Below, one piece after another: positions 33,755-57,846 of a stretch of 64,000 nt of DNA. Below the pieces are notes generated by a model. It worked only from the letters and a program-made list of their open reading frames with translations, was not told the DNA's origin and did not search any database. The position numbers and the translations under genes were made by a program. Positions within the stretch are counted from its first letter, which is position 1. Each line of letters starts with the position of its first letter. The stretch covers positions 7,831 to 71,830 of the forward strand of contig JANTGF010000002.1 of NCBI GenBank assembly GCA_024763075.1, in the 5' to 3' direction. This stretch comes from Bacteroidales bacterium (GTDB taxonomy: Bacteria > Bacteroidota > Bacteroidia > Bacteroidales > VadinHA17).

Positions 33755-36700
33755 ATGAAAACAAAAAATTTCTACACAAGGACAATCCTTGTAATGATTG
33801 GATTCCTGGTAGGGTTCAGTCAAACTGCCAGCCCCCAGGGAGCTCATTTAAAAGCTCATTGGAAGCTGGATGAAACTTCTGGCATTGTTGCTGAAGATGC
33901 AACCATGAACGGTTTTGATGTCTCGTTGAACAATACAACAGATACAAACTGGGTTGCAGGATACAACGGTGGGAGTTTACTGCTAAATGGTGCTAACCAG
34001 GACGGATCAATTGCAGCACCAGCATCAGACGCCTTTAAAATGCAATCCTTCTCTGTTGCAGCCTGGGTTAGGAATAATGCTCCTATGGATAAGTGGGGTG
34101 AATGGATCATTAGTCACGGGGACAACTGGGGATTGTATGTGAAACAAGATTTAGGTACACAATTCTACATCCATCATTCAACCGGCTGGGCAGGAACCGT
34201 GGGGATGGACTCAACCGTTTGGCAGGACAATGCATGGCACCATGTGGCTGCAACCTATGATGCAGAAACGGGCATGGCACAGGTTTATCGCGATGGAATG
34301 CTTGTAGGTGAAGACAGTATCGGGGTTATTGATTACTCAATGGGAGATGGTATTACCATTGGATCTATGGCCGGAGGCCGTAATTGGGATGGTAACCTGG
34401 ATGATGTTCGGGTATATGACGGAGTTTTATCTTCAACAGAGGTGCAAGGCATCGTATCAGAGTCTTCTCTGGTTGCATATTATAAACTTGATGAAAGCTC
34501 AGGTACCGTAGCTTCAGATGCCAGCAGTAACGGTTTTGATGTACTATTGAACAATACAACAGATACAAACTGGGTTGCAGGATACAAAGGCGGTAGTTTG
34601 CTGCTGAACGGTGCTAATCAAGACGGATCAATTGCAGCACCAGCATCAGATGTCTTTAAAATGCAATCCTTCTCTGTTTCAGCCTGGGTTAGGAATAATG
34701 CTCCTATGGATAAGTGGGGTGAATGGATCATTGGCCACGGGGACAATTGGGGATTGTATGTGCACGAGAATTTAGGAATACAATTCTACATCCATCATTC
34801 AACCGGCTGGGCAGGAACCGTAGGTATGGACTCAACCGTATGGCAGGACAATGCATGGCATCATGTGGCTGCATCCTATGATGCGGAAACAGGCATGGCA
34901 CAGGTATATCGAGATGGAATGCTTGTAGGTGAGGACAGTATCGGGGTTATTGATTATTCAATGGGAGATGGTTTTACAATCGGTTCTATGAGTGGTGGAC
35001 GTAACTGGGATGGAAATATTGATGAGGTGCGTATTTTTAAAAATGTGATCACACCTGCTGATGTGAAAAACATTATTGCAGAAAGTGGCTTGTTAGCCCA
35101 TTGGAAACTTGATGAAACCTCTGGCAATGTAGCATCCGATGTCAGTGATAACGGTTTTGATGTAACATTGAACAATACTACAGATACAAACTGGGTTGCC
35201 GGATACAAAGGCGGTAGTTTGTTGCTGAACGGCGTTGATCAGGACGGATCAATTGCAGCACCAGCATCAGATGCCTTTAAAATGCAATCCTTTTCTGTTG
35301 CAGCCTGGGTTAGGAATAATGCTCCTATGGATAAGTGGGGTGAATGGATCATTAGTCACGGGGACAACTGGGGATTGTATGTAAAACAAGATTTAGGTAC
35401 ACAATTTTACATCCATCATTCAACCGGCTGGGCAGGAACCGTGGGGATGGACTCCACTGTTTGGCAGGACAATTCATGGCACCATGTGGCTGCAACCTAT
35501 GATGCAGAAACGGGCATGGCACAGGTTTATCGTGATGGAATGCTTGTAGGTGAGGACAGTATCGGAGTTATTGATTACTCAATGGGAGATGGTATTACCG
35601 TTGGATCCATGGCTGGGGGTCGCAATTGGGATGGTAATCTGGATGATATCAGGGTTTACAATCTTGTGCTTGATCAGGATCAAATCAGAAACCTTGCCGG
35701 CTTTGAACCAATTGAGGAGAAGAAGCTTATAGTTTATTGGCCCTTCCAACAGACATCTGATACAATAGCTTATGATGAATCAGAAAACATTTATGATCTT
35801 CCGCTTGTCAATACAGATGATTCAAACTGGGAGATTGATTTTACCATTGGCAAGAGTTTAAAGCTTGACGGTGTTGAGGAATACGGAGTGTTGGATTCAA
35901 TCACATCTCTCAATTTTCATCAACCCACTTTTTCTATTGTCAATTATATCAAAATGGCTCCCGGATCGATCACTGACTGGTCCAGGATAGCAGGATTTGG
36001 AGATGCCTATGGTTTTAATGTGAACGAGGAAGGTAAACTGGGATTATGGTGCAACTTTGGAAGTGGCTGGCATGGCTCCTATGCCGATATGCCCACACTG
36101 GCTGATGGAAAATGGCACCAGGTTGCTATGACCCATGATGATGAGACTGGGAATATATTTTACCTTGATGGAGAAGTTGTACTTATCCAGGATTGGAGTG
36201 ATACAGATGGGAACCAGATCGAGTATCCGGGTAATTCATTATTTGTGGTCGGGGCTGTGGATAACGGTTATGCATTTAATAATCCACTTCCAGCCAACCT
36301 GAATGATATGATGATCTTCTCAGGTGTGCTCAGCCAAACTGAAATCCAGGATATGATGAAGAAACTTGGAGGTGCTACCCTTGTTGCTCATTATACAATG
36401 GATGGTGCTGCCGGAGACTCTGTTATTGTTGATGATTCAGGTAATGGCTTTGATGTACCTTTAGTTAATGGCACTGATTCTTCATGGGAACCTGGGGTTG
36501 TCGACGGAAGCCTTGCTTTGAATGGTACTGACCAATATGGGTTATTAGCAGCTCCTGCTTCAGCACCTTTCGCACTTCAGTCATTCACTATCTCAGCATA
36601 TGTTAAACTTGATGAAAATGCGCCCGGTTGGTCATGGGTAGCCGGTTATGGTGATAACTACGGCCTTGTTTTAAACCGCGACGGGAAAGGTAGCCTTATG

Positions 36701-37507
36701 TTGTATGTACATACTGCAGACGGATGGCCTGATCTAAGGTATGAGGGTGTTGATTTAAGAGATGGTTACTGGCATAATATAGCTGCTACTTATGATGCTA
36801 CCGGAGGTGGTGTTGTAAATCTTTATCTCGAAGGTGAGTTAGTTGCAGTTGATACTATTGGCGGGCCTATCGATTTCTCTCAACTTGATATGTTTAATAT
36901 AGGCTGTATGAATGGTGATAGACTGTTCCCTGGATCTATAGATGATCTTAGAATCTATGCAGAAGTCAGAACTCAGGAGCAGATCAAGGAAAACATTGCG
37001 CAACGATTTACCTTGACAACTCAGGTTACCGGTAATGGTTCTGTTAATCCTGACAGCGGACAGTTCTATAACAATGATATCATAACTATTACTGCAATAC
37101 CGGATGATGGTTGGGAATTCAAAGAATGGGATCCATTTGCAGGAACCATTGGCGGGAGTAGCAACCCGGTTGATGTAACTGTACATGTTAACATTATTGC
37201 TGCAGCCGTTTTTGAAGCAGCCACTGGAATTAAACCGGAGGAACAAGCTGCGGATTTTGCCGTTTACCCGAATCCATTCTCAGACCGGCTGAATATCCGT
37301 TATGAACTGGTTCAGAAGGAACAGGTAACGATTGCCATATATGATGTACTTGGTAAAGAGGTTAAAATCCTGGTTGATCAGATTGAACAACCTGGTTCCT
37401 ATACCATTACATGGGATGGAATGAATGCTACTTCGAATGGGATATATTACCTGAAAGCCCGTGTCGGTTCGGATGTTCATACACAAAAGATTATTTTGAG
37501 CCGTTAG
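33755..37507 (+). CDS. Non-catalytic multi-LamG_3 (5 domains) surface protein with InlB-B-repeat-like domain and T9SS sorting domain
   Basis: Signal peptide. Five units of the form HWKLDETSG...NGFDV.LNN...WHHVAATYD...LDDVRVYD. One unit FTLTTQVTGNGSVNPDSGQFY...GWEFKEWD. T9SS tail: FAVYPNPFSDRLNIRY...GIYYLKA...KIILSR. No recognisable catalytic domain. Confidence 0.9.
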   Translation: MKTKNFYTRTILVMIGFLVGFSQTASPQGAHLKAHWKLDETSGIVAEDATMNGFDVSLNNTTDTNWVAGYNGGSLLLNGANQDGSIAAPASDAFKMQSFSVAAWVRNNAPMDKWGEWIISHGDNWGLYVKQDLGTQFYIHHSTGWAGTVGMDSTVWQDNAWHHVAATYDAETGMAQVYRDGMLVGEDSIGVIDYSMGDGITIGSMAGGRNWDGNLDDVRVYDGVLSSTEVQGIVSESSLVAYYKLDESSGTVASDASSNGFDVLLNNTTDTNWVAGYKGGSLLLNGANQDGSIAAPASDVFKMQSFSVSAWVRNNAPMDKWGEWIIGHGDNWGLYVHENLGIQFYIHHSTGWAGTVGMDSTVWQDNAWHHVAASYDAETGMAQVYRDGMLVGEDSIGVIDYSMGDGFTIGSMSGGRNWDGNIDEVRIFKNVITPADVKNIIAESGLLAHWKLDETSGNVASDVSDNGFDVTLNNTTDTNWVAGYKGGSLLLNGVDQDGSIAAPASDAFKMQSFSVAAWVRNNAPMDKWGEWIISHGDNWGLYVKQDLGTQFYIHHSTGWAGTVGMDSTVWQDNSWHHVAATYDAETGMAQVYRDGMLVGEDSIGVIDYSMGDGITVGSMAGGRNWDGNLDDIRVYNLVLDQDQIRNLAGFEPIEEKKLIVYWPFQQTSDTIAYDESENIYDLPLVNTDDSNWEIDFTIGKSLKLDGVEEYGVLDSITSLNFHQPTFSIVNYIKMAPGSITDWSRIAGFGDAYGFNVNEEGKLGLWCNFGSGWHGSYADMPTLADGKWHQVAMTHDDETGNIFYLDGEVVLIQDWSDTDGNQIEYPGNSLFVVGAVDNGYAFNNPLPANLNDMMIFSGVLSQTEIQDMMKKLGGATLVAHYTMDGAAGDSVIVDDSGNGFDVPLVNGTDSSWEPGVVDGSLALNGTDQYGLLAAPASAPFALQSFTISAYVKLDENAPGWSWVAGYGDNYGLVLNRDGKGSLMLYVHTADGWPDLRYEGVDLRDGYWHNIAATYDATGGGVVNLYLEGELVAVDTIGGPIDFSQLDMFNIGCMNGDRLFPGSIDDLRIYAEVRTQEQIKENIAQRFTLTTQVTGNGSVNPDSGQFYNNDIITITAIPDDGWEFKEWDPFAGTIGGSSNPVDVTVHVNIIAAAVFEAATGIKPEEQAADFAVYPNPFSDRLNIRYELVQKEQVTIAIYDVLGKEVKILVDQIEQPGSYTITWDGMNATSNGIYYLKARVGSDVHTQKIILSR
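33854..35716 (+). repeat. Three in-frame tandem 621-bp (207-codon) LamG repeat units inside the CDS
   Basis: Units start at 33854 (AHWKLDE), 34475 (AYYKLDE) and 35096 (AHWKLDE). The period is exactly 621 bp. The cores are near-identical at nucleotide level and the edges are more diverged. Confidence 0.9.
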
Positions 37508-37812: not shown

Positions 37813-38832
37813 CTAAATATGTTCAATAATTTTTAATCCGCAATTTTTGCACTTTCCCTGCTGGTCAAGTCCGCTGGTCCATGTTTTGTAACCATTACGT
37901 ACAATTACTTCAGAATTGCATACTGGACACAAAGTATTATTTCCCATGGCAGGATCGGCCACATTTCCGAGATAGACATATTTCAGGTACTTTTTGGCAA
38001 TTTTGTAAAACCCACTTAGCTTTTTCACTTCCGTAGGAGGGAGGCTTACCTTGAAATGAGGGTAATACCTGGATAAATGCAATACCGTATTTTCACCTGT
38101 TTCCAATGCGATCCATTCCACCATCTTTTCAAAAACCACAGGATCATCATTCAGGGTAGGGATAACCAGGTTGGTAATTTCAAGATGCTTTCCTGCTTTG
38201 TGAATTGTCTTAATGGTTTCTTTTACCGGTTCAAGGGATGAGGAGGTGTGTTTTTTGTAAAAATCTTCTGTAAAACCTTTCAGATCGATATTAAAAGCAT
38301 CGGTAAATTCTATCATTTCCCTACCGGGAGTTTCGTTGATAAAACCATTGGACACCATTACATTTTTCAGTCCGGCTTTTTCTGCCACCTTTGCCACATC
38401 CCGCACATATTCAAACCAGATGACGGGTTCGTTATAAGTGTAGGCAATTCCTATATTCCCTTTTATATCCAGAGCTTCATTAATAATCTCCTGTGGATCA
38501 GTGAGTGCTTTTCTTTCGGGGTCTCTGATTCCATTTTGTGATATATCACTGTTCTGGCAAAAGCTGCATTTCAGGTTACAACCGAAAGTTCCGATGGACA
38601 GAACTCCCTGTCCAGGGTAAAAATGATACAGTGGTTTTTTTTCAACAGGATCGAAATGCAGGGCAGAAAGCACTGCATAATTTTCAGCATAAAGTATTCC
38701 CTCAATGTTTCTCCTGACCAGGCAAATTCCGGTCTTTCCGGGTTTTATAATACAGTTATGCGGACAAAGGGTGCATTTTACAATGCTGTTTTCCTTTTTC
38801 TCATACCAGGAGGCCTCAGTGAATGTTTCCAT
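37813..38832 (-). CDS. amrS: AmmeMemoRadiSam-system radical SAM enzyme (PFL-activase-like)
   Basis: WYEKKENSIVKCTLCPHNCIIKPGKTGICLVRRN, FDPVEKKPLYHFYPG, and the radical SAM cluster motif GCNLKCSFCQNSDIS. C-terminal Cys pairs: CPVCNS...CKNCG. Confidence 0.85.
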   Translation of the reverse strand: METFTEASWYEKKENSIVKCTLCPHNCIIKPGKTGICLVRRNIEGILYAENYAVLSALHFDPVEKKPLYHFYPGQGVLSIGTFGCNLKCSFCQNSDISQNGIRDPERKALTDPQEIINEALDIKGNIGIAYTYNEPVIWFEYVRDVAKVAEKAGLKNVMVSNGFINETPGREMIEFTDAFNIDLKGFTEDFYKKHTSSSLEPVKETIKTIHKAGKHLEITNLVIPTLNDDPVVFEKMVEWIALETGENTVLHLSRYYPHFKVSLPPTEVKKLSGFYKIAKKYLKYVYLGNVADPAMGNNTLCPVCNSEVIVRNGYKTWTSGLDQQGKCKNCGLKIIEHI

Positions 38833-41407: not shown

Positions 41408-42187
41408 ATGAAAATTAAATATGTTCTTCTACTGGTTTTTGGTGTTCTTTTTTCTTTTTCTGTTTTGGTTGATTGCATTCATAAAAAGGACAAATCGAAT
41501 GAGAATCAGGACTCTGCTTCTGAAATAGCAATGCCGGTTGAAAAGCAGCCGAATACACTGACTGAAGCCGAGAAAGCGGATGGCTGGAAGCTTTTATTTA
41601 ATGGTAAAACTACCAAAGGCTGGAGAGCATTTAATAAGGAAAGTATTGGTTCGGGCTGGGCTGTTGAAGGCGATTGCCTTGTGGCGCCCGGAAAAGGCGG
41701 AGATATTGGCGGAGATGTTGTTAGTGAAGAACAGTTTGAGAATTTTGATCTGAAACTGGAATGGAAAGTGACCAAAGGGGGAAACAGTGGTATCTTTTTT
41801 CATGTGCTGGAAGGCGATTACCCTGCAGTTTATGCTACGGGTCCGGAATATCAACTGATTGATGATATCGGCTTTCCTGCAAAACTGGAAGACTGGCAGA
41901 CCACCGGAGCAAACTATGCAATGGATCCCCCTGAAAATGCACAGATTAAACCGGCCGGTGAGTGGAATACATCTGAAATTACTGTAAATGGTCCTCATGT
42001 AGTTCATTATTTGAACGGAGTGAAAGTTGTGGAATATGACTTATGGACGAAAGAATGGGAAGAAAAAGTGAAAAACAGTAAATGGAAAGATTATCCTGAT
42101 TATGGAAAAGCAAAAAAAGGGCATTTAGGATTACAGGATCACGGAAACAAAATCTATTTTAGAAATATTAAGATAAAAGAACTTTAA
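41408..42187 (+). CDS. DUF1080 (PF06439, 3-keto-disaccharide-hydrolase-like) lipoprotein
   Basis: Signal peptide with Cys. GWKLLFNGKTTKGWRAF, GNSGIFFHV, PEYQLIDD, GHLGLQDHGNKIYFRNIKIKEL. Confidence 0.85.
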   Translation: MKIKYVLLLVFGVLFSFSVLVDCIHKKDKSNENQDSASEIAMPVEKQPNTLTEAEKADGWKLLFNGKTTKGWRAFNKESIGSGWAVEGDCLVAPGKGGDIGGDVVSEEQFENFDLKLEWKVTKGGNSGIFFHVLEGDYPAVYATGPEYQLIDDIGFPAKLEDWQTTGANYAMDPPENAQIKPAGEWNTSEITVNGPHVVHYLNGVKVVEYDLWTKEWEEKVKNSKWKDYPDYGKAKKGHLGLQDHGNKIYFRNIKIKEL

Positions 42188-42234
42188 TTGTTTTCTTTGC
42201 TTTGTAACTTTCTTAACCAACTAAAATTATCAAA

Positions 42235-42879
42235 ATGAAAAAATTATTATCATTTTCACGTATGGCTATTGTCCTTTCAGGGCTTATATGGCTTTCTTCT
42301 TTTACGGATACCGTTGAATACGGCAATTATAAAAAAGATAAAAAATGGGTCTCCCTTTTTAACGGGAAAGACCTTTCAGGCTGGAAAATTCATGGTACGG
42401 AGTTGTGGTTTGTAAAGGACGGAAAACTTATTTGTGAAAGTGGTCCGGATAAGAAGTACGGATACCTTGCCACAGAGAAGAAATTTAAGGATTTTGAATT
42501 GAAGCTCGAATTCCTTCAGGAGGCAAACGGGAATAGCGGAGTATTTTTTCGTTCTTCACTGGATGGTACAAAAATTTCCGGATGGCAGGTAGAGGTTGCT
42601 CCTCCGGGACATGATACAGGAGGTATTTATGAATCTTATGGCAGGGGATGGCTGGTTAAAATTCCGGATGAAAAGGAAAATATTCTGAAAATGGGCGAAT
42701 GGAACCAGTTGAAAGTGAGAGTGGTGGGTGATAATGTGAAAACCTGGCTGAATGGAGTGCAGATGGTTGATTTTAATGATGAGAAAATTGGTCAGGCCGT
42801 AGGGGTTATTGCTTTGCAAATTCATTCCGGCGGTGGGATCAAAGTGAGCTGGAAAAATATTTTTATTAAAGAACTCTGA
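42235..42879 (+). CDS. DUF1080 (3-keto-disaccharide-hydrolase-like) secreted protein
   Basis: WVSLFNGKDLSGWKIHG, GNSGVFFRS, IALQIHSGGGIKVSWKNIFIKEL. Confidence 0.85.
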   Translation: MKKLLSFSRMAIVLSGLIWLSSFTDTVEYGNYKKDKKWVSLFNGKDLSGWKIHGTELWFVKDGKLICESGPDKKYGYLATEKKFKDFELKLEFLQEANGNSGVFFRSSLDGTKISGWQVEVAPPGHDTGGIYESYGRGWLVKIPDEKENILKMGEWNQLKVRVVGDNVKTWLNGVQMVDFNDEKIGQAVGVIALQIHSGGGIKVSWKNIFIKEL

Positions 42880-42964
42880 AAAAGTAACTACAAAATTTCA
42901 GGCTGAATTTTAATTGTATAAACAAATAAACCATACTTGAATTTAACTTAATAATAAAAAAATT

Positions 42965-45610
42965 ATGAAAACACGAATGTGCAAACCCTTTTTGTTTCTT
43001 TTTGTTTTAGGATTCATAGTTTCATTTCAATCTTTTGCTCAGAAAACCAGTTTTACTACTCCTGAAAGCTATTTTGGCTTCTCCCCGGGAACAGACAGAA
43101 AGATGTTTGATTATGAGGAGCTTATATCTTATTTGAAAAAACTGGATGAAGAATCTCCGAGATTGAAACTGGTAGAGATTGGCAAATCCCCCATGGGGAA
43201 ACCAATGTATATTGCATTCCTTTCAGATGAGAAAAATATAAATAATCTGGAACCATTGCGCAGGATAAACAGGGAACTGGCTTTGAACCCTTCATTAACA
43301 GATGCAGAAAGAGAAGAAATGGCAAAAGACGGAAGAGTGTTTGTACTGGCAACCTTATCAATGCATTCCGGGGAGGTCGGACCTTCACAGTCTGCACCAC
43401 TGGTTGCCTACAAACTTGCAACTGCAGATTCTCCAGAACTTACAGGCTGGTTAAAAGATGTGGTTTATATGATGGTTCCCAGCCATAATCCTGACGGGAT
43501 GGATATGGTCGTACATAATTATAAAAAATACGTGGGTACAAAATATGAGGGTGCATCTTTGCCCCGTGTTTATCATAAATACGTGGGGCATGACAATAAC
43601 CGTGACTTTGTAATTCTTACACAGGAAGATACCCGTGCTATTGCCAGGATTTATAACCAGACATGGCTTCCCCAGGTAATGGTTGAGAAACATCAGATGG
43701 GTTCTACAGGTACCCGGTATTTTGTTCCGCCGAACCACGACCCCATAGCTGAAAATGTTGATGCCGGATTGTGGACCTGGGTTGGGATTTTTGGCCAGAA
43801 TATGCAGAATGATATGACCAATGCCGGCCTGGCAGGGGTTTCGCAACATTATATATTTGATAATTACTGGCCGGGTTCTACAGAAACTTGTTTGTGGAAT
43901 AATGTAATTGCTTTCTTAACCGAATGTGCGAGCGCCCGGGAAGCAACTCCCATATATGTTGAACCAAATGAACTCTCGGTTGGAGGGAAAGGCTTGTCTG
44001 AATATAAGAAAAGTATCAATATGCCTCTTCCATGGGAAGGCGGCTGGTGGAGGCTGGGTGATATAGTTGAATATGAAATCACCTCTACTATGTCCATCCT
44101 TAAAACAGCTTCATTGCATAAGGAAAAGATACTGAAATTCAGAAATGATATGTGCCGGCGGGAAATTCAAAAGGGCCTTACAAAGGCTCCTTATTATTAT
44201 GTCATACCAAAGAAACAGCATGATGAAAGTGAATTGGTGGATATGATCAACCTGATCAGAAGTCATGGAATTGATGTTTTTACCCTTAAATCTGATTATT
44301 TATTAAATGGCAGACAGTTTCTGGCAGGGGATTTTGTAGTTCCTTTGGCTCAACCATACAGGGCATTGATCAAGGAAATTCTGGAAAAACAAAAATATCC
44401 GGTCAGGCATTATACTCCCGGCGGGGAAATGATGAAACCCTATGACATTACCAGCTGGTCACTGCCGCTTCACAGGCAGGTTACTTCTTATGAAATTGAA
44501 ACCCGTGATAAAGGGCTGGAAGCGGATATTCAGAAAGTTGAAAATGATATAAATCTCGCAGGTGCTTATCCCGGAGATTTTAAATCTGCAATGTTCAGTG
44601 TAAATGATAATGCTGGTTTTAAGGCTGCATTTATCGCACTGGAGCAGGGGATTCCGGTCTCCAGACTGACTGCGGATGCTGCAATAGATGGGAAAGTTTT
44701 GCCCAAAGGAAGTTTTGTCATTCAGAATTCGAAGAAATCATCGGATACCTGGAAAATTATTCAGGATGAAATTAAAATTATGCCGGTTTTCTATAATGGG
44801 AATGAAGAATTGAAGTTAGAGGAAGTGAATGCCCCCAGAATTGCACTGGTTGAAACTTATTTCCATGATATGGATGCAGGTTGGACCCGTTATATTTTTG
44901 ATACATACCATATTAAGTTTACTGTATTACATCCGGGTGAAATTGAAAGCACCGACCTCTCAGGTAAATTTGATGTGTTGATCTTTCCGGATGATTCGAA
45001 ATCCATGTTAATGGAAGGGAAATGGGGTAGGAATGGTCAGTACAGTATGAGCCGGTATGCTCCTGAATATGTGAAAGGGTTGGGGAAAAAGGGTCTTGAG
45101 AAAGTGTTGACATACATTGATGATGGAGGACTCGTTCTATCCTGGGGGCAATCCACAGCATTGTTCGAAGGCCTTCATAAAATTACAAAGGGAAAAGAAA
45201 AAGAGGAATTTCAGCTGCCATTCAGGGATATTTCATCCTCTCTTCAGAAAGACGGACTTTATGTGGCAGGGTCACTGATGAAAATTTCCCTGGTAAAAGA
45301 CAACTCTTTAACACTCGGGCTTCCCCCAGAGATTGGAATCTTTTCAAGAGGAAGACCTGTGTTTGCTACTTCTGTGCCCATATTTGATATGGATCGCAGG
45401 GTAATTGGCCACTATGCGGATGAAAATGTGCTGATGAGTGGCTATGTCAGCCACCCGGAAAAACTTTACGATAAAGGTGCAATGGTATGGATCAAAAAAG
45501 GAAAAGGCCAGTTGGTACTTTATGGCTTTAGTCCGCAGTTTAGGGCTTCTACACAAGCTTCTTTCAAGTTGTTGTTTAATGCATTTTTTTTAACACCTGT
45601 TCAAAATTAA
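42965..45610 (+). CDS. M14-family zinc carboxypeptidase-like protein with large C-terminal extension
   Basis: Signal peptide. HxxE zinc motif in SMHSGEVG. PSHNPDG and HDNNRDF blocks. Confidence 0.82.
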   Translation: MKTRMCKPFLFLFVLGFIVSFQSFAQKTSFTTPESYFGFSPGTDRKMFDYEELISYLKKLDEESPRLKLVEIGKSPMGKPMYIAFLSDEKNINNLEPLRRINRELALNPSLTDAEREEMAKDGRVFVLATLSMHSGEVGPSQSAPLVAYKLATADSPELTGWLKDVVYMMVPSHNPDGMDMVVHNYKKYVGTKYEGASLPRVYHKYVGHDNNRDFVILTQEDTRAIARIYNQTWLPQVMVEKHQMGSTGTRYFVPPNHDPIAENVDAGLWTWVGIFGQNMQNDMTNAGLAGVSQHYIFDNYWPGSTETCLWNNVIAFLTECASAREATPIYVEPNELSVGGKGLSEYKKSINMPLPWEGGWWRLGDIVEYEITSTMSILKTASLHKEKILKFRNDMCRREIQKGLTKAPYYYVIPKKQHDESELVDMINLIRSHGIDVFTLKSDYLLNGRQFLAGDFVVPLAQPYRALIKEILEKQKYPVRHYTPGGEMMKPYDITSWSLPLHRQVTSYEIETRDKGLEADIQKVENDINLAGAYPGDFKSAMFSVNDNAGFKAAFIALEQGIPVSRLTADAAIDGKVLPKGSFVIQNSKKSSDTWKIIQDEIKIMPVFYNGNEELKLEEVNAPRIALVETYFHDMDAGWTRYIFDTYHIKFTVLHPGEIESTDLSGKFDVLIFPDDSKSMLMEGKWGRNGQYSMSRYAPEYVKGLGKKGLEKVLTYIDDGGLVLSWGQSTALFEGLHKITKGKEKEEFQLPFRDISSSLQKDGLYVAGSLMKISLVKDNSLTLGLPPEIGIFSRGRPVFATSVPIFDMDRRVIGHYADENVLMSGYVSHPEKLYDKGAMVWIKKGKGQLVLYGFSPQFRASTQASFKLLFNAFFLTPVQN

Positions 45611-45629
45611 AATTTAACTGTCTGAAATT

Positions 45630-46124
45630 ATGAGTAGTATATCAAAATCAATAAGTTATTCCAAAGGGCAGCTTTCGATGCTGGTTACTTTGAGGGTATT
45701 AATAGGCTGGCATTTTCTATACGAAGGATTTACAAAACTTGCAAATCCGGACTGGTCTTCCATCGGTTTCTTACTGGATTCAAAGGGCCCGTTTGCAGGT
45801 CTTTTCCAGGGACTGGCCAATAGCCCGGGTATGCTGAATACAGTGGACTTTCTGAATGTTTACGGTTTAATAGCCATCGGATTAGGCTTGATTCTGGGCG
45901 CTTTAACCAGACCGGCCATCATTGCAGGAATTGTGCTTTTGGTCTTTTATTATTTATCCCACCCTCCTTTTGTGGGGATTACTTATGCAGCACCTACTGA
46001 AGGTAAGTATCTGTGGGTAAACAAAAATCTGATTGAAATGATTGCCCTGGCGGTATTGTATGTATTTCCAACAGGAAGGATCATTGGGCTGGACCGATTG
46101 TTTTTTGGAAGTACGGAGAATTAA
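45630..46124 (+). CDS. DoxX-family integral membrane protein
   Basis: Four hydrophobic segments. N-terminal LRVLIGWHFLYEGFTKL is typical of DoxX. It lies 19 nt after the M14 gene and 30 nt before the Tat-signal oxidoreductase. Confidence 0.72.
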   Translation: MSSISKSISYSKGQLSMLVTLRVLIGWHFLYEGFTKLANPDWSSIGFLLDSKGPFAGLFQGLANSPGMLNTVDFLNVYGLIAIGLGLILGALTRPAIIAGIVLLVFYYLSHPPFVGITYAAPTEGKYLWVNKNLIEMIALAVLYVFPTGRIIGLDRLFFGSTEN

Positions 46125-46154
46125 ATTTTCTATATTTTAAAAGTAGAATAAAAG

Positions 46155-47729
46155 ATGACAATGGAAAGTGATAAAAATGAATTAAACAAACCCGGGAAAT
46201 CCCGTCGTGATATAATAAAAAGCCTTGCAACTGTACCGGTGCTTGGGGCTTTTGCCTATGGTTATTATAAGAAAAAGAAGTTTGACAGGAATATAAATGC
46301 CGCTATTCTGGATGACCTTGGAATGGACCAGGGAGCTCCCAAACATGCAGTTTCTGCTTCTTCTGGTGGAAAAAAGATAAGGATAGGGATCATTGGTTAT
46401 GGTATCAGGGGTACACAGCTGATGAAAGGAGCCGGTTTTGTCCATCCCGACTGGATTGATTCCATCCGGAGAGCGCATGAAAAAAATCCGGCAGACAAAC
46501 GCTATCCCGAATATCTGGAACAGGAAGATCTGAATATCGAGGTAAATGGTGTTTGTGATATTTTTGATATCCGGGCGGAAAGAGCATTGGATGCAGCAGG
46601 AAATGTGGGAAGGAAAGGCACGGAAGCCGGACGGGAACATAAGGCAAAGCGTTATTTAACTTATAAGGAATTATTGGCTGCACCCGATATTGATGCGGTG
46701 ATCATCGCAGCCCCCGATCACTGGCACGGACCGATAACCATTGAGGCTGCAAGGAACGGTAAGCATGTTTATTGTGAAAAGCCTATGACCTGGACGGTTG
46801 AAGAAACCTATGTGGTAAGGGAAGAAGTTAAAAAGAACAACATTGTATTTCAGTTGGGCCACCAGGGACGTCAGACGGAGAGTTATTTTAAGGCAAGAGA
46901 GGCCATTCAAAAGAATCTTCTTGGGGATATTTCATTAATTGAAGTTACTACAAACAGAAATACCCCCAATGGTGCCTGGGTTTATCCTATCCATCCGGAT
47001 GCCAGCCCTGAAAATATAGACTGGAAACAATTTATCGGACAGGCACCATGGCATGATTTTAGTCTGGAAAGATTTTTCAGGTGGAGGTGCTGGTGGGATT
47101 ACAGTACCGGGCTCTCAGGAGACCTGTTGACACATGAATACGATGCTATGAATCAGATACTTGACCTGGGAATTCCCAGATATGCCTCTTCCTCAGGTGG
47201 AATCTATTATTTTAAGGACGGACGAACCGTACCTGATGTTTTGCAAACCGTATTTGAGTTTCCGGATAAAGACCTGAGTATGTTGTACAGCGCCTCACTG
47301 GCCAGCAGTAAGAAAAGAGGGAAGGTGATCATGGGGCATGATGCAAACATGGAACTGGGTCAGAGTCTTACCATTATGGCCGATAGGAACTCTACCAGGT
47401 ATGCAGAGAAAATAAAAGATAAAGTGATAGATCTTTCCCGGCCGATTTACTCTTACATTCCGGGTCGTAAAAACGTGGATGCCGTCTCCTCTGCCACTGA
47501 GCAGTATTTTGCAGGCAGGGGGTTACTCTATACATACAGAAACGGACGCAGGGTAGATACTACTCATTTGCATATTAAGGAGTGGTTGGAGGCTATCCGG
47601 TCCGGAGGAAAAACAAGTTGTAACATCGACAGGGGATTTGAAGAAGCAATCACAGCCCATATGGGAACAATTGCTTATCGTGAAGGAAGGAGAACAGAAT
47701 GGGATGCTGATAATGAAAAAATAATATAA
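46155..47729 (+). CDS. Tat-exported Gfo/Idh/MocA-family oxidoreductase (glycoside 3-dehydrogenase-like)
   Basis: Twin-arginine motif SRRDIIKSLATVPVLGAFA. Rossmann segment IRIGIIGYGIRG. DAVIIAAPDHWH and YCEKPM blocks. Confidence 0.85.
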   Translation: MTMESDKNELNKPGKSRRDIIKSLATVPVLGAFAYGYYKKKKFDRNINAAILDDLGMDQGAPKHAVSASSGGKKIRIGIIGYGIRGTQLMKGAGFVHPDWIDSIRRAHEKNPADKRYPEYLEQEDLNIEVNGVCDIFDIRAERALDAAGNVGRKGTEAGREHKAKRYLTYKELLAAPDIDAVIIAAPDHWHGPITIEAARNGKHVYCEKPMTWTVEETYVVREEVKKNNIVFQLGHQGRQTESYFKAREAIQKNLLGDISLIEVTTNRNTPNGAWVYPIHPDASPENIDWKQFIGQAPWHDFSLERFFRWRCWWDYSTGLSGDLLTHEYDAMNQILDLGIPRYASSSGGIYYFKDGRTVPDVLQTVFEFPDKDLSMLYSASLASSKKRGKVIMGHDANMELGQSLTIMADRNSTRYAEKIKDKVIDLSRPIYSYIPGRKNVDAVSSATEQYFAGRGLLYTYRNGRRVDTTHLHIKEWLEAIRSGGKTSCNIDRGFEEAITAHMGTIAYREGRRTEWDADNEKII

Positions 47730-47857
47730 TTCTGAATATTGGTTTTTAATCTTTTCAGTTCGTTTTTTAAAATTGATTTAAAATAACTAAATTTATTTTC
47801 TTATTTTATTCCGGCTATAGCATTAAATGATTTATTTCTAAACTTAAACTTTCAACC

Positions 47858-48700
47858 ATGTCATCAAGAAGAAATTTTATCAAAAAAACTTCTCTGTTAA
47901 CAGCAGGGAGTATGGTCCTTCCTTTAAGCTCATTTAAACCGGCAAAAAGTGCCCCCTATGGTTTGATCCTTTATACCGTCAGAAATGAAATGGATAAGGA
48001 TGTAATGGGTACCCTTGAAAAAGTGGCTTCAGTTGGCTATGAAGCCCTGGAAGCTGCTAATTACTCAAATGGCCTTTTTTACGGAATGAAACCAGCAGCA
48101 TTTAGAAAAGCAGTGGAGTCTTTTGGGATGAAACTTCTGAGCAGTCATAATGGTGTGACTGAAGAAAATCTTGAACGAACTGCCGGAGATGCGGCGGAAG
48201 CCGGTTTGAAATATGTGGTAAAACCGTCGTTTCATGCAAAAACCATTGATGATTTTAAAAGAGGAGCGGAGAGCTTTAATAAATTTGGAGAGAGATTTAA
48301 CAGAGAAGGAATCCGGTTTGGATATCACAATCATTCATTTGAATTTGAGAAAATTGATGATGTCATTCCTTACGATGTTTTGCTTGAAAATACAGATCCT
48401 TCACTGGTTTGCATGGAGCTGGATTTGTACTGGATCAAAAAGGGAGGCTTTGAACCCTGGGAATATTTTGAGAAGTTCCCGGGCAGGTTTGAACTCTGGC
48501 ATGTGAAAGACATGAAGGAAAAAGGGAAACAGGAATTTACGGAAGTAGGGAACGGAATCATCGATTTTAAAAAGATCTTTTTCCTGAAAAACCTTGCCGG
48601 GATGAAAAATTATTTTGTTGAAGAGGATACCTGTAAAGATTATCCGCCACTGGAGAGTATAAAGATAAGCCTGGATTACATTAAAAAAATGGGTTTTTAA
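47858..48700 (+). CDS. Tat-exported xylose-isomerase-like TIM-barrel (sugar phosphate isomerase/epimerase family) protein
   Basis: Twin-arginine motif MSSRRNFIKKTSLLTAGS. AP_endonuc_2-type blocks: GYEALE, FGYHNHSFEF, MELDLYW, WHVKD. Confidence 0.85.
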   Translation: MSSRRNFIKKTSLLTAGSMVLPLSSFKPAKSAPYGLILYTVRNEMDKDVMGTLEKVASVGYEALEAANYSNGLFYGMKPAAFRKAVESFGMKLLSSHNGVTEENLERTAGDAAEAGLKYVVKPSFHAKTIDDFKRGAESFNKFGERFNREGIRFGYHNHSFEFEKIDDVIPYDVLLENTDPSLVCMELDLYWIKKGGFEPWEYFEKFPGRFELWHVKDMKEKGKQEFTEVGNGIIDFKKIFFLKNLAGMKNYFVEEDTCKDYPPLESIKISLDYIKKMGF

Positions 48701-51198: not shown

Positions 51199-52587
51199 AT
51201 GAGAAGACGTAAATTCATCCAAACCACAGGTAGCTTTGCTGTACTCGTTAGTGGTACGGGAATGGTCGCCTGCCAAAATATCTTTAAAGATAAAAGTGAA
51301 AGGGAACTGAAAACCTGGTCTGTTGCTGCTTTTAAGCGCTTTGCTGAGATTTGGAATTTTAATGATTTCTGGAAAAGAGGTAATACCTTTGATGCCTGCC
51401 TTACTTTTGTAGATGCTATACATCATCAGTGGCCGGACGACCCGGAAATCAAAGCCATGCAAACAAGTGTGGTGAAGATGCTGGAGGAGAATCTTATTTT
51501 TTTCAATCAGTTTGACCCTGGTGATCTGTGGGCTGATGATTTTGGATGGTGGGGCCTGATGGCGCTTAATGCAAGGAGACATCTGCTACGGATGGGAGAA
51601 TCAGAACTCGCGGATAAATACCTCCGGCTTTCTACGGATCTGTGCTGGGAATATAAAAAGAATACTGCCTATGACAATACTCCGGATGCAAAACCCGTTC
51701 CCCACGGATGCAGAAACGGTGATGCCAAAGGAGTCAGTAAAGGGGTGAAGAATACCGTTACCAATGTTTTGCTGTTTTTGCTTTCTTCCAGGATTTACCG
51801 ATTGACACTGGCAGAAAATATTAAGGATAATGAAAAGTATCTGGATATGGCATACCGGCAATGGATCTGGTTTAATAGCTGGTTTGAACTTGAAAAATAT
51901 GAATATCTGAAAAAAATACCAACTTCCGGGGCATTGGTGCAGGAACGCCCTATGGCTGTATTTGAAGGTTCTGATTATATGGATAAAACTCATCCTCCGT
52001 GGGCAGAGGGCTGGGTATGGACAGGTGATCAGGGAATGCTGCTGGCAGCACTTACCGATATGCTGGCAGTGCGGAAGGAGCTGACCGAATGGATGGGCAA
52101 AAACGACATGGACCCGGATTTTGATCCTGTAGTTTTTGAAAAGAAAATTCACCGGTATATTTCCCTGATTGTCAATGGAATCAAAACTGCATTGGTCAGT
52201 GATACAGATGGTATTATCAGAGAAGCTCCCTGCAAGTCAGGTTTCGGACCAAGGCATGGTAATGATTATCTGGCAGGCCGGGGCATCATGATGCGCTATC
52301 TTGGCGTTTTGGAAGCAAAATCTTTACCCGGACCGGATATGCGTGAGCATATAAAAGCCACAGCTGAAGCAATCTGGGAAACGAGGGATGTGCTAAATAA
52401 TCAGTTTCAACCTGAGTTTACCACAATGGAAAATGATAAATTGTATATTGAGCAGTTCAGGAAACTCTGGGGTCTTGCAGATGATGTTGTGAAGTGGGAT
52501 ATTTCAAAAATGAAAGAGCAGAATAAATTCGGGGTTTGTCAGTCCATTGGGCTGGATGCACTAGGGGCGGCGATCAGGTTACTTTAG
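51199..52587 (+). CDS. Tat-signal (alpha/alpha)6 glycoside-hydrolase-like protein, GH76-like
   Basis: [25 protein letters not shown] (twin-arginine plus possible lipobox). GH76-style blocks: [57 protein letters not shown]. Confidence 0.6.
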
Positions 52588-54076: not shown

Positions 54077-55261
54077 TCAGTTCTCTAATTCAGGGCTTAC
54101 AAAGGGAATCCATTTTTTACTGCTTTTGGTTGATTCAAGTACGGTCTTAATAAAAGCCATGCCTCTTATACCATCTGCAACATCAGGAAAGTCGTAACTT
54201 CCGGTTTCTGAATTTTTTCCTTCAATATGATTTGTAACGGCCCGGGCAAACTCAAGATAAATATTTGCAAAAGCCTCAATAAAACCCTCCGGATGGCCTG
54301 CCGGAAGTCGGCAGTTTCTTTTTGCAATTTCTGAAAGACCGGGAGCGTTATTTCCGGCCCGGAGGATCTGCAAGGGTTTGTCTGTCCATCTTACTGTCAG
54401 GGAGTTGGGTTCCATTTGTGCCCATTCCAGTCCTCCCTTTTCTCCATACACTTTTATTTTCAGGTTATTTTCTTCCCCTGTACTCACCTGGCTGGCTATG
54501 AATGCACCCCTGGCCCCGTTACTGAAACGCAATAAAATATTGTCATCGTCATCCATTTTTCGCCCTTTTACCAGGGTGCTTAATTCGGCATTGACTTCAG
54601 AAACTTCGAGTCCGGTAATATATTCAATCAGGTTTTCAGCATGTGTTCCTACGTCTCCCATGGTAAGTACATTACCGGTTATTTCAGGATCAGATCTCCA
54701 GGCTGCCTGTTTATGACCGGTTCGTTCCATCAGGGTTGCCAGCCAGCCTTGCGGATATTCAACCACAACTTTTCTTAATTCTCCCAGAGCTCCTCCCCGG
54801 GCCATTTCACCGGCCTGTTTTACCATGGGGTATCCGGTGTAATTATGAGTTAACATAAAAATCAGGCCGGTTTCTTTAACAAGACTTCCCAGTTCCATGG
54901 CTTCACCCAGATTGGCTGTCATGGGTTTATCACAAACCACATGAAAACCATTTTCAAGTGCAAATTTGGCCTGTGGGAAATGCTGGTTGTTTGGAGTTAC
55001 AATCGTAACAAAATCCATTCTTTCGTCCTTAGGAAGGTTTTTTTCTCCAATGATCATTTCCTGGTAGCTGTCATAAACCCTTTTTTTCGGGAGGTGAAGT
55101 ATACGCCCGGTTTCTTCAGATCGCTGAGGTGAACTACTAAAAGCACCACAAATCAGTTCAATCTGGCTGTCCATAATGGCAGCTTTCCTATGGATATCTC
55201 CGATAAATGCACCTTCTGATCCTCCGATCATTCCCATTCTGAGTTTTCTGTTTATGTCCAT
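54077..55261 (-). CDS. Cytoplasmic Gfo/Idh/MocA-family oxidoreductase
   Basis: No signal peptide. Rossmann LRMGMIGGSEGAFIG. DFVTIVTPNNQHF and VVCDKPM blocks. Confidence 0.85.
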   Translation of the reverse strand: MDINRKLRMGMIGGSEGAFIGDIHRKAAIMDSQIELICGAFSSSPQRSEETGRILHLPKKRVYDSYQEMIIGEKNLPKDERMDFVTIVTPNNQHFPQAKFALENGFHVVCDKPMTANLGEAMELGSLVKETGLIFMLTHNYTGYPMVKQAGEMARGGALGELRKVVVEYPQGWLATLMERTGHKQAAWRSDPEITGNVLTMGDVGTHAENLIEYITGLEVSEVNAELSTLVKGRKMDDDDNILLRFSNGARGAFIASQVSTGEENNLKIKVYGEKGGLEWAQMEPNSLTVRWTDKPLQILRAGNNAPGLSEIAKRNCRLPAGHPEGFIEAFANIYLEFARAVTNHIEGKNSETGSYDFPDVADGIRGMAFIKTVLESTKSSKKWIPFVSPELEN

Positions 55262-55517: not shown

Positions 55518-57005
55518 ATGGGCAAAATTAAGAAAGAAAAAGAAATCTCCCGTCGGAGTTTCGTAGGTAAAACCATGGCTGCTACGGCAGGTTTTACAAT
55601 TTTACCATCATTTGTGGTAAGTGGTTTAGGTCATAAAGCCCCAAGTGATAAACTGAATATTGCAGGTGTCGGAATCGGAGGTATGGGTTTCAGCAACCTT
55701 AAGAAAATGGAGACCGAAAATATTGTTGGTCTTTGTGATGTTGACTGGAAATATGCTGACCGGGTTTTTAAGCATTTTCCGAAAGCTCAGAAATTCAGGG
55801 ATTTCAGAAAAATGTATGATGAAATTGGGAAATCAATTGATGCTGTGGTGGTAGCTACTGCTGACCATACACATGCCATTGTTGCTGCGCATGCAATTAC
55901 CATGGGAAAGCATGTTTATGTACAGAAACCTTTAACTCATACGGTCTATGAATCACGTTTGCTCACAAAACTGGCGGAAAAATATAAAGTAGCCACCCAG
56001 ATGGGAAATCAGGGTTCTTCAGGTGAGGGTGTGAACCTTACAACCGAATGGATGGCTAATAATGAAATTGGTGAGGTTACCCGGGTAGAGGCTTTTACAG
56101 ACCGACCCATCTGGCCCCAGGGACTTCCACGCCCTGATGCAATGAATGTTCCGGAAACACTGGACTGGAACCTCTTCATAGGACCTGCCCCCATGCGCCC
56201 TTATAATGCAATTTACACACCCTGGAACTGGCGTGGCTGGTGGGACTTTGGAACGGGTGCACTGGGTGATATGGCATGCCATATTTTGCATCCTGTATTT
56301 GTGGGTCTGGATCTGGGTTATCCCGTTAAAGCACAAGGAAGCTCCACAATGTTATTGAGTGATTCGGCTCCAAATGCTGAAATGGTTACGCTAACTTTTC
56401 CACAACGAAAACCGGCAAAGAAAATGAAAATGAAACTGCCACAGGTTGAAGTTACCTGGTATGATGGAGGACTGAAACCAAACAAACCCGATGGCTGGCC
56501 TGACGGAAAAGAAATGAATAATGCTGGTGGCGGTGTAATTTTCCATGGAACAAAAGATAAACTTATCTGTGGATGCTATGGGAAAGATCCATGGTTATTA
56601 TCAGGAAGAGTACCCGATGCTCCAAAATTCAGAAGGAGAGTCAAAACATCTCATGAGCAGGACTGGATAAGAGCATGTAAGGAAAGCCCGGAAAACCGTG
56701 TAGAAACAGCTTCTCCTTTTAAAGAGGCCGGACCATTCAATGAAATGGTGGTTATGGGAGTTCTCGCTGTTCGCCTGCAAACCTTGAATAAACAATTGGA
56801 TTGGGATGGTCAGAATATGACATTTACCAATATTAACGACAAAGATGAGATTAAAATTATCAAGAAAGATAATTTTAGTATCCATGATGGTCACCCCACT
56901 TTCCATAAGGACTGGACAGATCCTGTGCCTGCAAAAGATTTTGCTGCAGGCTTGATCAAACATAATTATAGAGATGGATGGTCATTACCGGAGATGCCGA
57001 AATAA
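55518..57005 (+). CDS. Tat-exported Gfo/Idh/MocA-family oxidoreductase (glycoside 3-dehydrogenase-like)
   Basis: Twin-arginine motif ISRRSFVGKTMAATAGFTILPS. LNIAGVGIGGMG, DAVVVATADHTHA and VYVQKPL blocks. Confidence 0.85.
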   Translation: MGKIKKEKEISRRSFVGKTMAATAGFTILPSFVVSGLGHKAPSDKLNIAGVGIGGMGFSNLKKMETENIVGLCDVDWKYADRVFKHFPKAQKFRDFRKMYDEIGKSIDAVVVATADHTHAIVAAHAITMGKHVYVQKPLTHTVYESRLLTKLAEKYKVATQMGNQGSSGEGVNLTTEWMANNEIGEVTRVEAFTDRPIWPQGLPRPDAMNVPETLDWNLFIGPAPMRPYNAIYTPWNWRGWWDFGTGALGDMACHILHPVFVGLDLGYPVKAQGSSTMLLSDSAPNAEMVTLTFPQRKPAKKMKMKLPQVEVTWYDGGLKPNKPDGWPDGKEMNNAGGGVIFHGTKDKLICGCYGKDPWLLSGRVPDAPKFRRRVKTSHEQDWIRACKESPENRVETASPFKEAGPFNEMVVMGVLAVRLQTLNKQLDWDGQNMTFTNINDKDEIKIIKKDNFSIHDGHPTFHKDWTDPVPAKDFAAGLIKHNYRDGWSLPEMPK

Positions 57006-57038
57006 TTATTTATGAGTTGAATTAATAAAATGTAGTAT

Positions 57039-57809: not shown

Positions 57810-57846
57810 AAATTTTTTCTGAGGTTTTAACTGTAAATTATTTTTA

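Follow-up and report, generated by a model that had tools for sequence, protein, structure and literature searches.

One of the closest described counterparts of the genes considered here is the BT2156-BT2159 set of Bacteroides thetaiotaomicron, a 3-keto-glycoside pathway with all components periplasmic (PMC8121099; related Protein Data Bank (PDB) entries 8tct, 8tcd, 8tcs, 8tda, 8tdf, and 8tdh) that includes a Gfo/Idh/MocA oxidoreductase exported by the twin-arginine translocation (Tat) system, a xylose-isomerase-like TIM barrel, and a DUF1080 protein. A similar set is found in a 64,000-nucleotide (nt) stretch of a Bacteroidales genome (VadinHA17 lineage; contig JANTGF010000002.1, positions 7,831 to 71,830; this whole stretch is called the window below), where six genes at 41408-48700 encode these families together with an M14-like peptidase and a small membrane protein of the DoxX family. 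The gene for DoxX is followed directly by that for the Gfo/Idh/MocA enzyme, here called GfoL. It is proposed, with a probability of about 0.45, that these two form an undescribed two-subunit, membrane-bound, periplasm-facing dehydrogenase with quinone coupling.

Each half of such an enzyme has partial precedents. Glucose-fructose oxidoreductase (GFOR) of Zymomonas mobilis is, like GfoL, a Tat-exported Gfo/Idh/MocA protein, and carries its nicotinamide cofactor, NAD(P), to the periplasm in non-dissociable form (PMC8121099); unlike the proposed pair, it is soluble, has a cleaved signal and no membrane subunit, and balances its redox cycle via a second sugar. How periplasmic Gfo/Idh/MocA enzymes with a non-exchangeable cofactor stay oxidized has been left open for gut Bacteroides (PMC8121099). 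The LacABC and ThuAB glucoside 3-dehydrogenases, which depend on flavin adenine dinucleotide, also oxidize C3 in the periplasm and pass electrons to the respiratory chain, but belong to unrelated catalytic families, and their link runs via cytochrome c rather than a DoxX subunit (PMC8121099). DoxX itself represents a very large family still termed poorly characterized (PMC10084136). As summarized there, DoxD is a subunit of thiosulfate:quinone oxidoreductase, giving a quinone precedent for DoxD/DoxX proteins: the DoxDA enzyme of Acidianus ambivalens has a four-helix DoxD/DoxX-type subunit within a quinone-reducing membrane oxidoreductase, although its substrate and catalytic subunit are unrelated to those considered here. 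A parallel in layout (PMC10084136) is BtdLS of Aromatoleum anaerobium, a two-subunit, membrane-bound hydroxyhydroquinone dehydrogenase whose small subunit, BtdS, is a four-helix DoxX/D protein; it differs from the proposed role of GfoL in its aromatic hydroquinone substrate. A search of full-text literature found no paper linking DoxX with Gfo/Idh/MocA enzymes in a relevant sense. In function, the proposed pair would resemble the class of periplasmic oxidoreductases that Tat delivers and that are seated on a small membrane subunit reacting with quinone.

The main observation is the strictness with which the two genes occur together. They were followed from both sides: an alignment of DoxX homologues was used to scan one genome per species, yielding at least 595 matching stretches, of which the best 80 loci were examined, and a GfoL alignment served as query in a scan of metagenomes. 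Both locus sets are biased toward the best 80 matches of their scan, and loci are termed informative where there was enough flanking DNA on the side examined. In the DoxX-seeded set, a GfoL orthologue lies immediately 3' of DoxX on the same strand in 75 of 78 informative loci; complete orthologues have 515-595 amino acids (aa) and score 540-930 bits, and the gap between the genes is mostly <40 nt. The other three loci, all from Vicinamibacteria, have a different Gfo protein of ~480 aa immediately upstream of DoxX, with the same N-terminal motif (LDRRDVLLGLSTVPALGLFGYAWRKQ). All 78 have an adjacent Gfo protein with the twin-arginine helix (RR-helix) described below at its N-terminus. In the GfoL-seeded set DoxX is directly upstream of GfoL in 74 of 74 informative loci, the single locus scored as lacking it being an artefact of overlapping open reading frames (ORFs).

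The preliminary description of this region had named synteny of DoxX with Tat-type Gfo/Idh/MocA genes elsewhere as a test of its suggestion that the two are connected, and the outcome bears it out. Taken together, the searches from either gene gave about 150 independent loci with this adjacency, from at least six phyla: Bacteroidota, Acidobacteriota (Aminicenantes, Vicinamibacteria), Gemmatimonadota, Latescibacterota, Marinisomatota, and Calditrichota. One of the species is the culturable human-gut bacterium Parabacteroides distasonis, with the order Gfo496-DUF1080-DoxX-GfoL. Adjacency of this extent is far beyond chance, and DoxX and GfoL are very probably an obligate functional pair. When all flanking ORFs were clustered, neither a third conserved gene nor a partner of the cytochrome, flavoprotein or iron-sulfur (Fe-S) type emerged. 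No natural DoxX-GfoL fusion was present in the ~150 loci or among the top 150 DoxX representatives described below, although no dedicated search was made.

The conserved core is therefore the DoxX-GfoL gene pair and not the whole seven-kb set, which had been taken for a single module. The TIM barrel is directly 3' of GfoL in 25 of 117 loci (21%), and DUF1080 directly 5' of DoxX in 17 of 106 (16%); these genes are frequent accessories, not core. An M14 gene is directly 5' of DoxX in just 2 of 106 (2%), and is otherwise near the pair only in close relatives (L003, L070, L086, L145); the peptidase is probably incidental and not part of the system. The proposed connection with 3-keto-glycoside families holds up in a looser form. 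Downstream of the pair, a BT2158-like Gfo of ~495 aa is found in 30 of 78 loci and a DUF1080 gene in 38 of 78, and any DUF1080 or TIM gene is present in the flanks of 33 of the 54 loci with both flanks (61%, as a raw count). Residues 46-277 of the TIM barrel at 47858-48700 match 8tct, 8tcd, and 8tcs with E-values from 3e-46 to 8e-46, and by this measure the protein is a homologue of 3-keto-glycoside pathway enzymes, with a function that is predicted.

Some further features of these neighborhoods may be mentioned. In 11 loci (L002 and L030 among them) a radical-SAM gene of ~337 aa is encoded upstream of the pair in the reverse orientation, and in the window one lies at 37813-38832 (- strand), ~7 kb upstream of the pair; this recurrence may be mere shared ancestry among Bacteroidales. 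In a single locus (L001:10212-12326) the pair is followed by genes for ApbE (a flavin transferase) and a ferredoxin-like 4Fe-4S protein; this arrangement was seen in no other locus.

The second line of evidence is the N-terminus of GfoL. As previously described, this contains the motif SRRDIIK (residues 16-22), with SRRNFIK in the TIM barrel (residues 3-9), and the DoxX stop codon is exactly 30 nt 5' of the GfoL start. SRRDIIK agrees with the Tat consensus (S/T)-R-R-x-F-L-K before a hydrophobic stretch, but the conservation extends well past it. In 149 GfoL orthologues the consensus is RR-D-h-L-K-G-L-A-T-V-P-V-L-G-A-F-A-Y-G-x-Y-(K/R)4, with RR in 100%, K(+5) in 90%, P(+11) in 95%, G(+14) in 95%, and K(+23) in 88%. 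The BT2158-like and TIM proteins of the same loci have ordinary, variable Tat signals, with a different hydrophobic region that is rich in Ala, Thr, and Gly and lacks P(+11) and G(+14). No consistent signal-peptidase AxA site was found across the GfoL orthologues. An AlphaFold2 (AF2) model has one continuous helix over residues 17-55; the twin arginines are at -2 of the membrane helix, whose crude Hessa-scale sum (+6.9) is the least favorable among the helices compared, and the 12 residues after it have a median net charge of +4. Orthologues carry charged N-terminal tails, as long as 82 residues, ahead of the RR motif. In three loci with an Aminicenantes-type GfoL of 593 aa (L035, L044, L049) this tail is ~80 residues long and extremely lysine-rich; some of these contigs are labeled "Eubacteriales," probably a binning error.

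Experiments have defined the signature of a membrane helix inserted by Tat rather than by the general secretory (Sec) system: twin arginines immediately in front of it, weak hydrophobicity, and positive charges on its C-terminal side (Tooke et al., 2017, PMC5449189). The GfoL RR-helix has each of these properties. The SRRDIIK segment is thus probably a retained membrane helix and not a cleaved signal peptide, and a periplasmic location for GfoL is favored. Of the earlier claim of a Tat-exported periplasmic oxidoreductase, then, the Tat motif stands and the location is favored, but the motif probably belongs to an anchor that stays in place.

Proteins in which DoxX and an RR-helix are joined provide the third line. 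A HMMER search with DoxX against 1.84 billion cluster representatives gave 1900 matches at E <= 1e-3. Among the best 150, which were inspected, 28 are longer, with DoxX (residues ~1-160), a short linker, an RR-helix in the same register (for example, SLDRRDFLTNLAGIPVLGALAAA and PKSRREMIKNIAFLPFAGGFAWAYA), and a further domain. In P0329 (PF01070, E 6e-110) and also in P0290 this is an FMN (flavin mononucleotide)-dependent dehydrogenase domain. FMN-dependent alpha-hydroxy-acid dehydrogenases are a class that always needs an external acceptor. P0347 has a DUF362 domain, while the commonest fused domain is an unassigned one of ~330 aa (P0249 and others; L022:2443-3981), with chance-level Pfam matches only (E <= 10) and no PDB match. 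A C-terminal "LAGGAI…GADFIEVG" stretch in this domain resembles, on the author's reading only, an FMN-binding TIM-barrel motif. P0258, P0266, P0275, and about 20 more representatives belong to this same group, with four DoxX helices, linker, RR-helix, and C-terminal domain.

As judged from their sequences, the fusions show a retained RR-helix and a module used by cofactor-bearing enzymes of more than one kind. They also fix the side of the membrane on which the RR motif lies: it is that of the DoxX C-terminus, cytoplasmic by the positive-inside rule. Taken with the DoxX topology, the fusion layout therefore suggests that the pair in the window has this same arrangement of five helices, divided after helix 4 so that the RR-helix falls to the second gene. 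Proteins inserted by both Sec and Tat have been described with an RR motif before the last membrane helix, low hydrophobicity of that helix, positive charges after it, and a cofactor domain outside (PMC5449189). The DoxX fusions have exactly this layout, and the window pair would have it in two genes. DoxX proteins are absent from the families named in that paper ("DoxX" occurs 0 times), and their cofactors here would be NAD(P) or FMN, not metal centers.

The DoxX protein itself scores 32.6 bits against the Pfam gathering cut-off of 23.6 (residues 18-107). Its AF2 model (predicted local distance difference test score, pLDDT, 76.6) has four long helices at 12-38, 66-89, 93-110, and 132-145. A homologue search gave 3009 sequences, the top 120 at least 59-60% identical, and polar residues conserved family-wide are R22, H28, Y31, E32, K36, W42, N76, and E136. 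Charges are distributed with +1.1 at the N-terminus, +2.4 at the C-terminus, -1.2 in loop 1, and -0.9 in loop 3, from which the positive-inside rule predicts that both termini are cytoplasmic and that loops 1 and 3, which are conserved, face outward. The polar stripe on helix 1 (R22, H28, E32, and K36) and the outer loops are kept across DoxX sub-families with different catalytic partners. A fold search of the PDB with the model gave nothing significant (best E 0.48); the best shape matches, to be taken as leads only, are NACHO/TMEM35A (E 0.53, TM 0.49/0.59) and, more weakly, vitamin-K gamma-carboxylase.

Haem binding by H28 and H111 was considered and rejected, H111 being Tyr in the fusion protein P0249. 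An assignment to the DoxDA type of thiosulfate:quinone oxidoreductase was also discarded: there is no DoxA in the flanks, and the window DoxX has no match to PF04173 (DoxD). The Joint Genome Institute (JGI) name of this clade, "thiosulfate dehydrogenase [quinone] large subunit," looks like an over-annotation, with neither a DoxA partner nor a sulfur-oxidation context seen. Eight DoxX relatives (P0322, P0337, P0345, P0353, P0363, P0368, P0381, P0382) match the query in two stretches, which suggests an unassigned insertion of ~250-300 aa after helix 1 and ahead of the other three helices, placing it in loop 1, predicted to be outside.

GfoL retains the catalytic hallmarks of its family. Its Rossmann domain reaches 61.3 bits in Pfam (PF01408; cut-off 24); GxGxxG (G78, G81, G83) and E208/K209 are invariant across phyla, P210 is invariant among closer relatives, and the C134/D135 pair and D323/H327 vary little or not at all from phylum to phylum. 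C134-D135 is taken by the author to close the second Rossmann strand. The catalytic motifs are intact. An assignment of GfoL to the BT2158 type was rejected: against the model of the BT_2158 family (NCBIfam NF058561) GfoL scores 133.2 bits with a cut-off of 750, over residues 162-373 only. A hhalign comparison with the BT2158-like enzymes of the same loci (probability 100, E 1.6e-40, 28% identity over ~300 residues, GfoL positions 12-375) shows clear common descent, with GfoL-specific inserts at about 93-127 and 146-163 and a C-terminal third that does not align. Compared with BT2158, then, GfoL is placed by its sequence in a separate Gfo/Idh/MocA clade, always paired with DoxX, with extra inserts and a different C-terminal third; it also differs from the description of BT2156-2159 in its conserved, apparently uncleaved signal-anchor and its obligate DoxX partner. 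The best PDB sequence matches are 8tdf and 8tdh. With the AF2 model (mean pLDDT 74.6), Foldseek finds Gfo/Idh/MocA oxidoreductases acting on sugar rings at target-normalized TM-scores of 0.70-0.78: scyllo-inositol dehydrogenase, YjhC, NanOx, DgpA, levoglucosan dehydrogenase, and NAD-dependent glycoside hydrolases.

Conservation of the pair, the RR-helix, and the fusions together make DoxX very probably the membrane subunit of a periplasm-facing dehydrogenase. What we infer (complex formation, an uncleaved anchor, periplasmic orientation, a sugar C3 substrate, and electron transfer to quinone) would run as follows. GfoL would fold around NAD(P) in the cytoplasm, after which the Tat system would recognize SRRDIIK and move it across the membrane. 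The weakly hydrophobic signal helix (residues ~19-38), uncleaved and with a basic cluster after it, would leave GfoL tethered, and the RR-helix would dock on the DoxX bundle, adding a fifth helix in the membrane. The catalytic domain would oxidize one of the ring hydroxyls in a sugar or glycoside, C3 being the likeliest position, giving a product that would feed the neighboring TIM-barrel and DUF1080 enzymes of the 3-keto-glycoside route. Menaquinone, presented by DoxX at a polar site on the periplasmic side (H28, E32, and K36 of helix 1 with the conserved loops), would re-oxidize the bound NAD(P)H. The physical membrane complex with its uncleaved Tat anchor is considered likely; quinone coupling through DoxX is a more tentative proposal, at slightly under even odds. 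Its support is indirect, coming from the DoxD and BtdS precedents, from the external acceptor that the fused FMN dehydrogenases require, and from the polar residues of helix 1 (H28, E32, K36) and the outer loops that DoxX sub-families share. That DoxX plus a Tat-inserted RR-helix might be a general, unrecognized membrane module wiring cofactor-loaded periplasmic dehydrogenases into the quinone pool is put forward as a conjecture, and a doubtful one. Its partners would be NAD(P)-bound Gfo/Idh/MocA enzymes from split genes and, in fusions, FMN alpha-hydroxy-acid dehydrogenases, DUF362, and the unassigned domain.

Several points weigh against a quinone-coupled glycoside dehydrogenase. With no flavin, haem or Fe-S partner among the genes, the hydride would have to go directly from NAD(P)H to quinone. 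The earlier premise that a periplasmic dehydrogenase needs an electron outlet is unsafe, since BT2158 and GFOR are thought to recycle NAD(P) via a second sugar, with no outlet required (PMC8121099), and among the structural matches of GfoL, NanOx, YjhC, and the NAD-dependent glycoside hydrolases regenerate NAD within each cycle. About 40% of the loci with both flanks have no TIM or DUF1080 gene nearby, so a glycoside substrate is not required. The basic residues that follow the GfoL helix also fit a cytoplasmic domain if the positive-inside rule is applied in its simple form. On the side of DoxX, H111 is replaced in fusion P0249, and the only solved DoxX-fold protein found, NACHO/TMEM35A, is a non-redox assembly factor, although the match is weak.

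Several of these points lend themselves to the reading that DoxX is a docking or assembly partner of the GfoL helix only and carries no electrons, leaving GfoL membrane-tethered and redox-neutral, by reduction of a keto-sugar with the same bound cofactor, which has been proposed for BT2158 and GFOR, or by regeneration of NAD within one catalytic cycle. The absence of an outlet in the closest characterized periplasmic relatives (PMC8121099), the NanOx, YjhC and glycoside hydrolase matches, the role of NACHO, and the lack of a conserved flavin, haem or Fe-S partner in the flanks all agree with it. It is nonetheless thought rather unlikely: a single uncleaved helix anchors a protein without help, and docking would leave unexplained both the polar stripe and periplasmic loops conserved across DoxX sub-families and the fusion of the module to an FMN-dependent alpha-hydroxy-acid dehydrogenase. 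Another possibility is a membrane-embedded or quinol-like substrate, such as a glycolipid head group or a hydroquinone, which DoxX would bind or deliver. BtdLS oxidizes hydroxyhydroquinone with a DoxX/D small subunit, tethering suits a membrane substrate, and the loci without glycoside-pathway neighbors would be accommodated; but the nearest sequence and structure relatives of GfoL all act on sugar rings, and TIM or DUF1080 neighbors are present in about 60% of both-flank loci, making this quite improbable.

The orientation of GfoL could also be the reverse of that proposed, with the RR segment serving not as a Tat signal but as an anchor, re-entrant or N-out, and with the dehydrogenase at the cytoplasmic face. 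The basic residues on both sides of the helix (net +4 after it) and the short hydrophobic stretch with its conserved Pro and Gly are compatible with this. It would have to account, however, for an exact and invariant Tat consensus (Z-R-R-x-hydrophobic-hydrophobic-K, with RR in 100% and K in 90%), for charged N-tails of up to 82 residues before RR, for conserved DoxX loops that lie outside by the positive-inside rule, and for relatives and neighbors that are exported proteins; moreover, basic residues after a weakly hydrophobic helix are a documented Sec-avoidance feature (PMC5449189). This orientation is judged very improbable. The reading closest to the preliminary description, that all six genes at 41408-48700 (M14 included) form one periplasmic oxidative glycoside-cleavage operon, with GfoL as glycoside 3-dehydrogenase and DUF1080 and TIM proteins cleaving the product, draws on the shared strand, the short gaps, export signals on all genes, the same arrangement in L003 and partly in L070, L086, and L088, and families matching the BT2156-BT2159 set. 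It is improbable given that DoxX and GfoL alone are conserved (see the M14, DUF1080, and TIM frequencies above), that GfoL falls below the cut-off of the BT_2158 model, and that 55518-58755 holds a true member of the BT_2158 family, accompanied by a DUF1080 protein and a TIM barrel of its own.

This last group, overlooked in the preliminary description, is by its family matches the canonical BT2158-type glycoside 3-dehydrogenase module, 8 kb downstream of GfoL (Table 1). Its constituents are also familiar from other loci: the pair of Gfo495 and DUF1080 recurs in many, the 57847-58755 type of TIM barrel occurs in 18 related ones, and Gfo genes of 350-395 aa like that at 54077-55261 recur near the DoxX-GfoL pair.

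Table 1. Positions of the DoxX-GfoL pair and of related or neighboring features in the window.
Feature	Position	Strand	Evidence
DUF1080 / 3-keto-disaccharide hydrolase family, 259 aa	41408-42187	+	PF06439, E 1e-51, 175.8 bits vs. cut-off 26.8
Second DUF1080 protein, 214 aa	42235-42879	+	PF06439, E 1e-42, 146.4 bits vs. cut-off 26.8
M14-like peptidase, 881 aa, Sec-type signal	42965-45610	+	Pfam Peptidase_M14, E 2e-13
DoxX-family membrane protein, 164 aa	45630-46124	+	Pfam DoxX (PF07681)
GfoL, Gfo/Idh/MocA enzyme, 524 aa	46155-47729	+	PF01408 / PF19051, GFO_IDH_MocA E 2e-16
Probable twin-arginine signal-anchor of GfoL, residues 16-42, SRRDIIKSLATVPVLGAFAYGYYKKKK	46200-46280	+	Motif conservation, composition, fusions
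Xylose-isomerase-like TIM barrel, Tat signal, 280 aa	47858-48700	+	PF01261, E 5e-11, 43.3 bits vs. cut-off 31.1
Gfo/Idh/MocA oxidoreductase without signal, 394 aa, predicted cytoplasmic	54077-55261	-	Partial NCBIfam matches, levoglucosan and xylose dehydrogenases
BT_2158-family glycoside 3-dehydrogenase, ordinary Tat signal	55518-57005	+	NF058561, 890.6 bits vs. cut-off 750, full length
DUF1080 partner, lipoprotein	57039-57809	+	phmmer vs. window DUF1080 41408-42187, E 3e-56
Second Tat-signal TIM barrel, 302 aa	57847-58755	+	PF01261, E 1.4e-19; N-terminus NRRDFIKRAGLAGSG

The six genes at 41408-48700, with their strand, coordinates, and families, are as first described (ORFs; Pfam), and are separated, in order, by 47, 85, 19, 30, and 128 nt. 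A promoter and terminator scan gave counts at the level of shuffled sequence, by a method that does not model Bacteroidota promoters. Both DUF1080 genes are above the Pfam cut-off, and their PDB relatives include 8tda, 8rr2, and 4jqt; the first has 3u1x (E 1.5e-56) and 8tda (E 5e-41). Read from the sequences, the first has a lipoprotein-like signal (…LVDC) and the second one of the Sec type. In the tandem-DUF1080 structure 4jqt, the C-terminal half resembles the first protein and the N-terminal half the second (E 4e-27), and in seven loci (L004, L021, L034, L068, L098, L103, L129) a single double-DUF1080 gene of 425-456 aa is directly 5' of DoxX; the two arrangements look like a gene split or fusion. 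The match of the M14-like protein is to model positions 2-136 of 286, the N-terminal half only; an HSGE (HxxE) motif is visible, and a PDB search with the protein found no relative. Elsewhere in the window, 51199-52587 encodes a GH76-like protein of 462 aa with a twin-arginine and lipobox-like N-terminus, conserved in the same place in L003 with a sulfatase after it, and 33755-37507 a secreted protein of 1250 aa in whose translation several near-identical repeats of ~220 aa are visible, and whose C-terminus resembles, on the author's reading, a type-IX-secretion sorting tail, a feature that would suggest that the window comes from Bacteroidota.

The strict pairing, conserved signal-anchor, and fusions merge two questions, the role of DoxX and the re-oxidation of the bound cofactor, into one testable hypothesis. 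The system reaches far, with at least 595 matching stretches in species-level genomes, and it occurs in the culturable human-gut bacterium P. distasonis. Without quinone coupling, the pair would still be a new membrane enzyme made by two genes, and the fusions would form a new class of proteins that are candidates for dual insertion by Sec and Tat. If the coupling is real, it would newly connect the oxidation of sugars outside the cytoplasm with anaerobic respiration, by a route from NAD(P)H to menaquinone that uses no flavin, and Bacteroidota (including P. distasonis) and several other phyla would respire on sugars oxidized in this way. Should the module prove general, it would provide a biochemical role for the large and poorly understood DoxX family.

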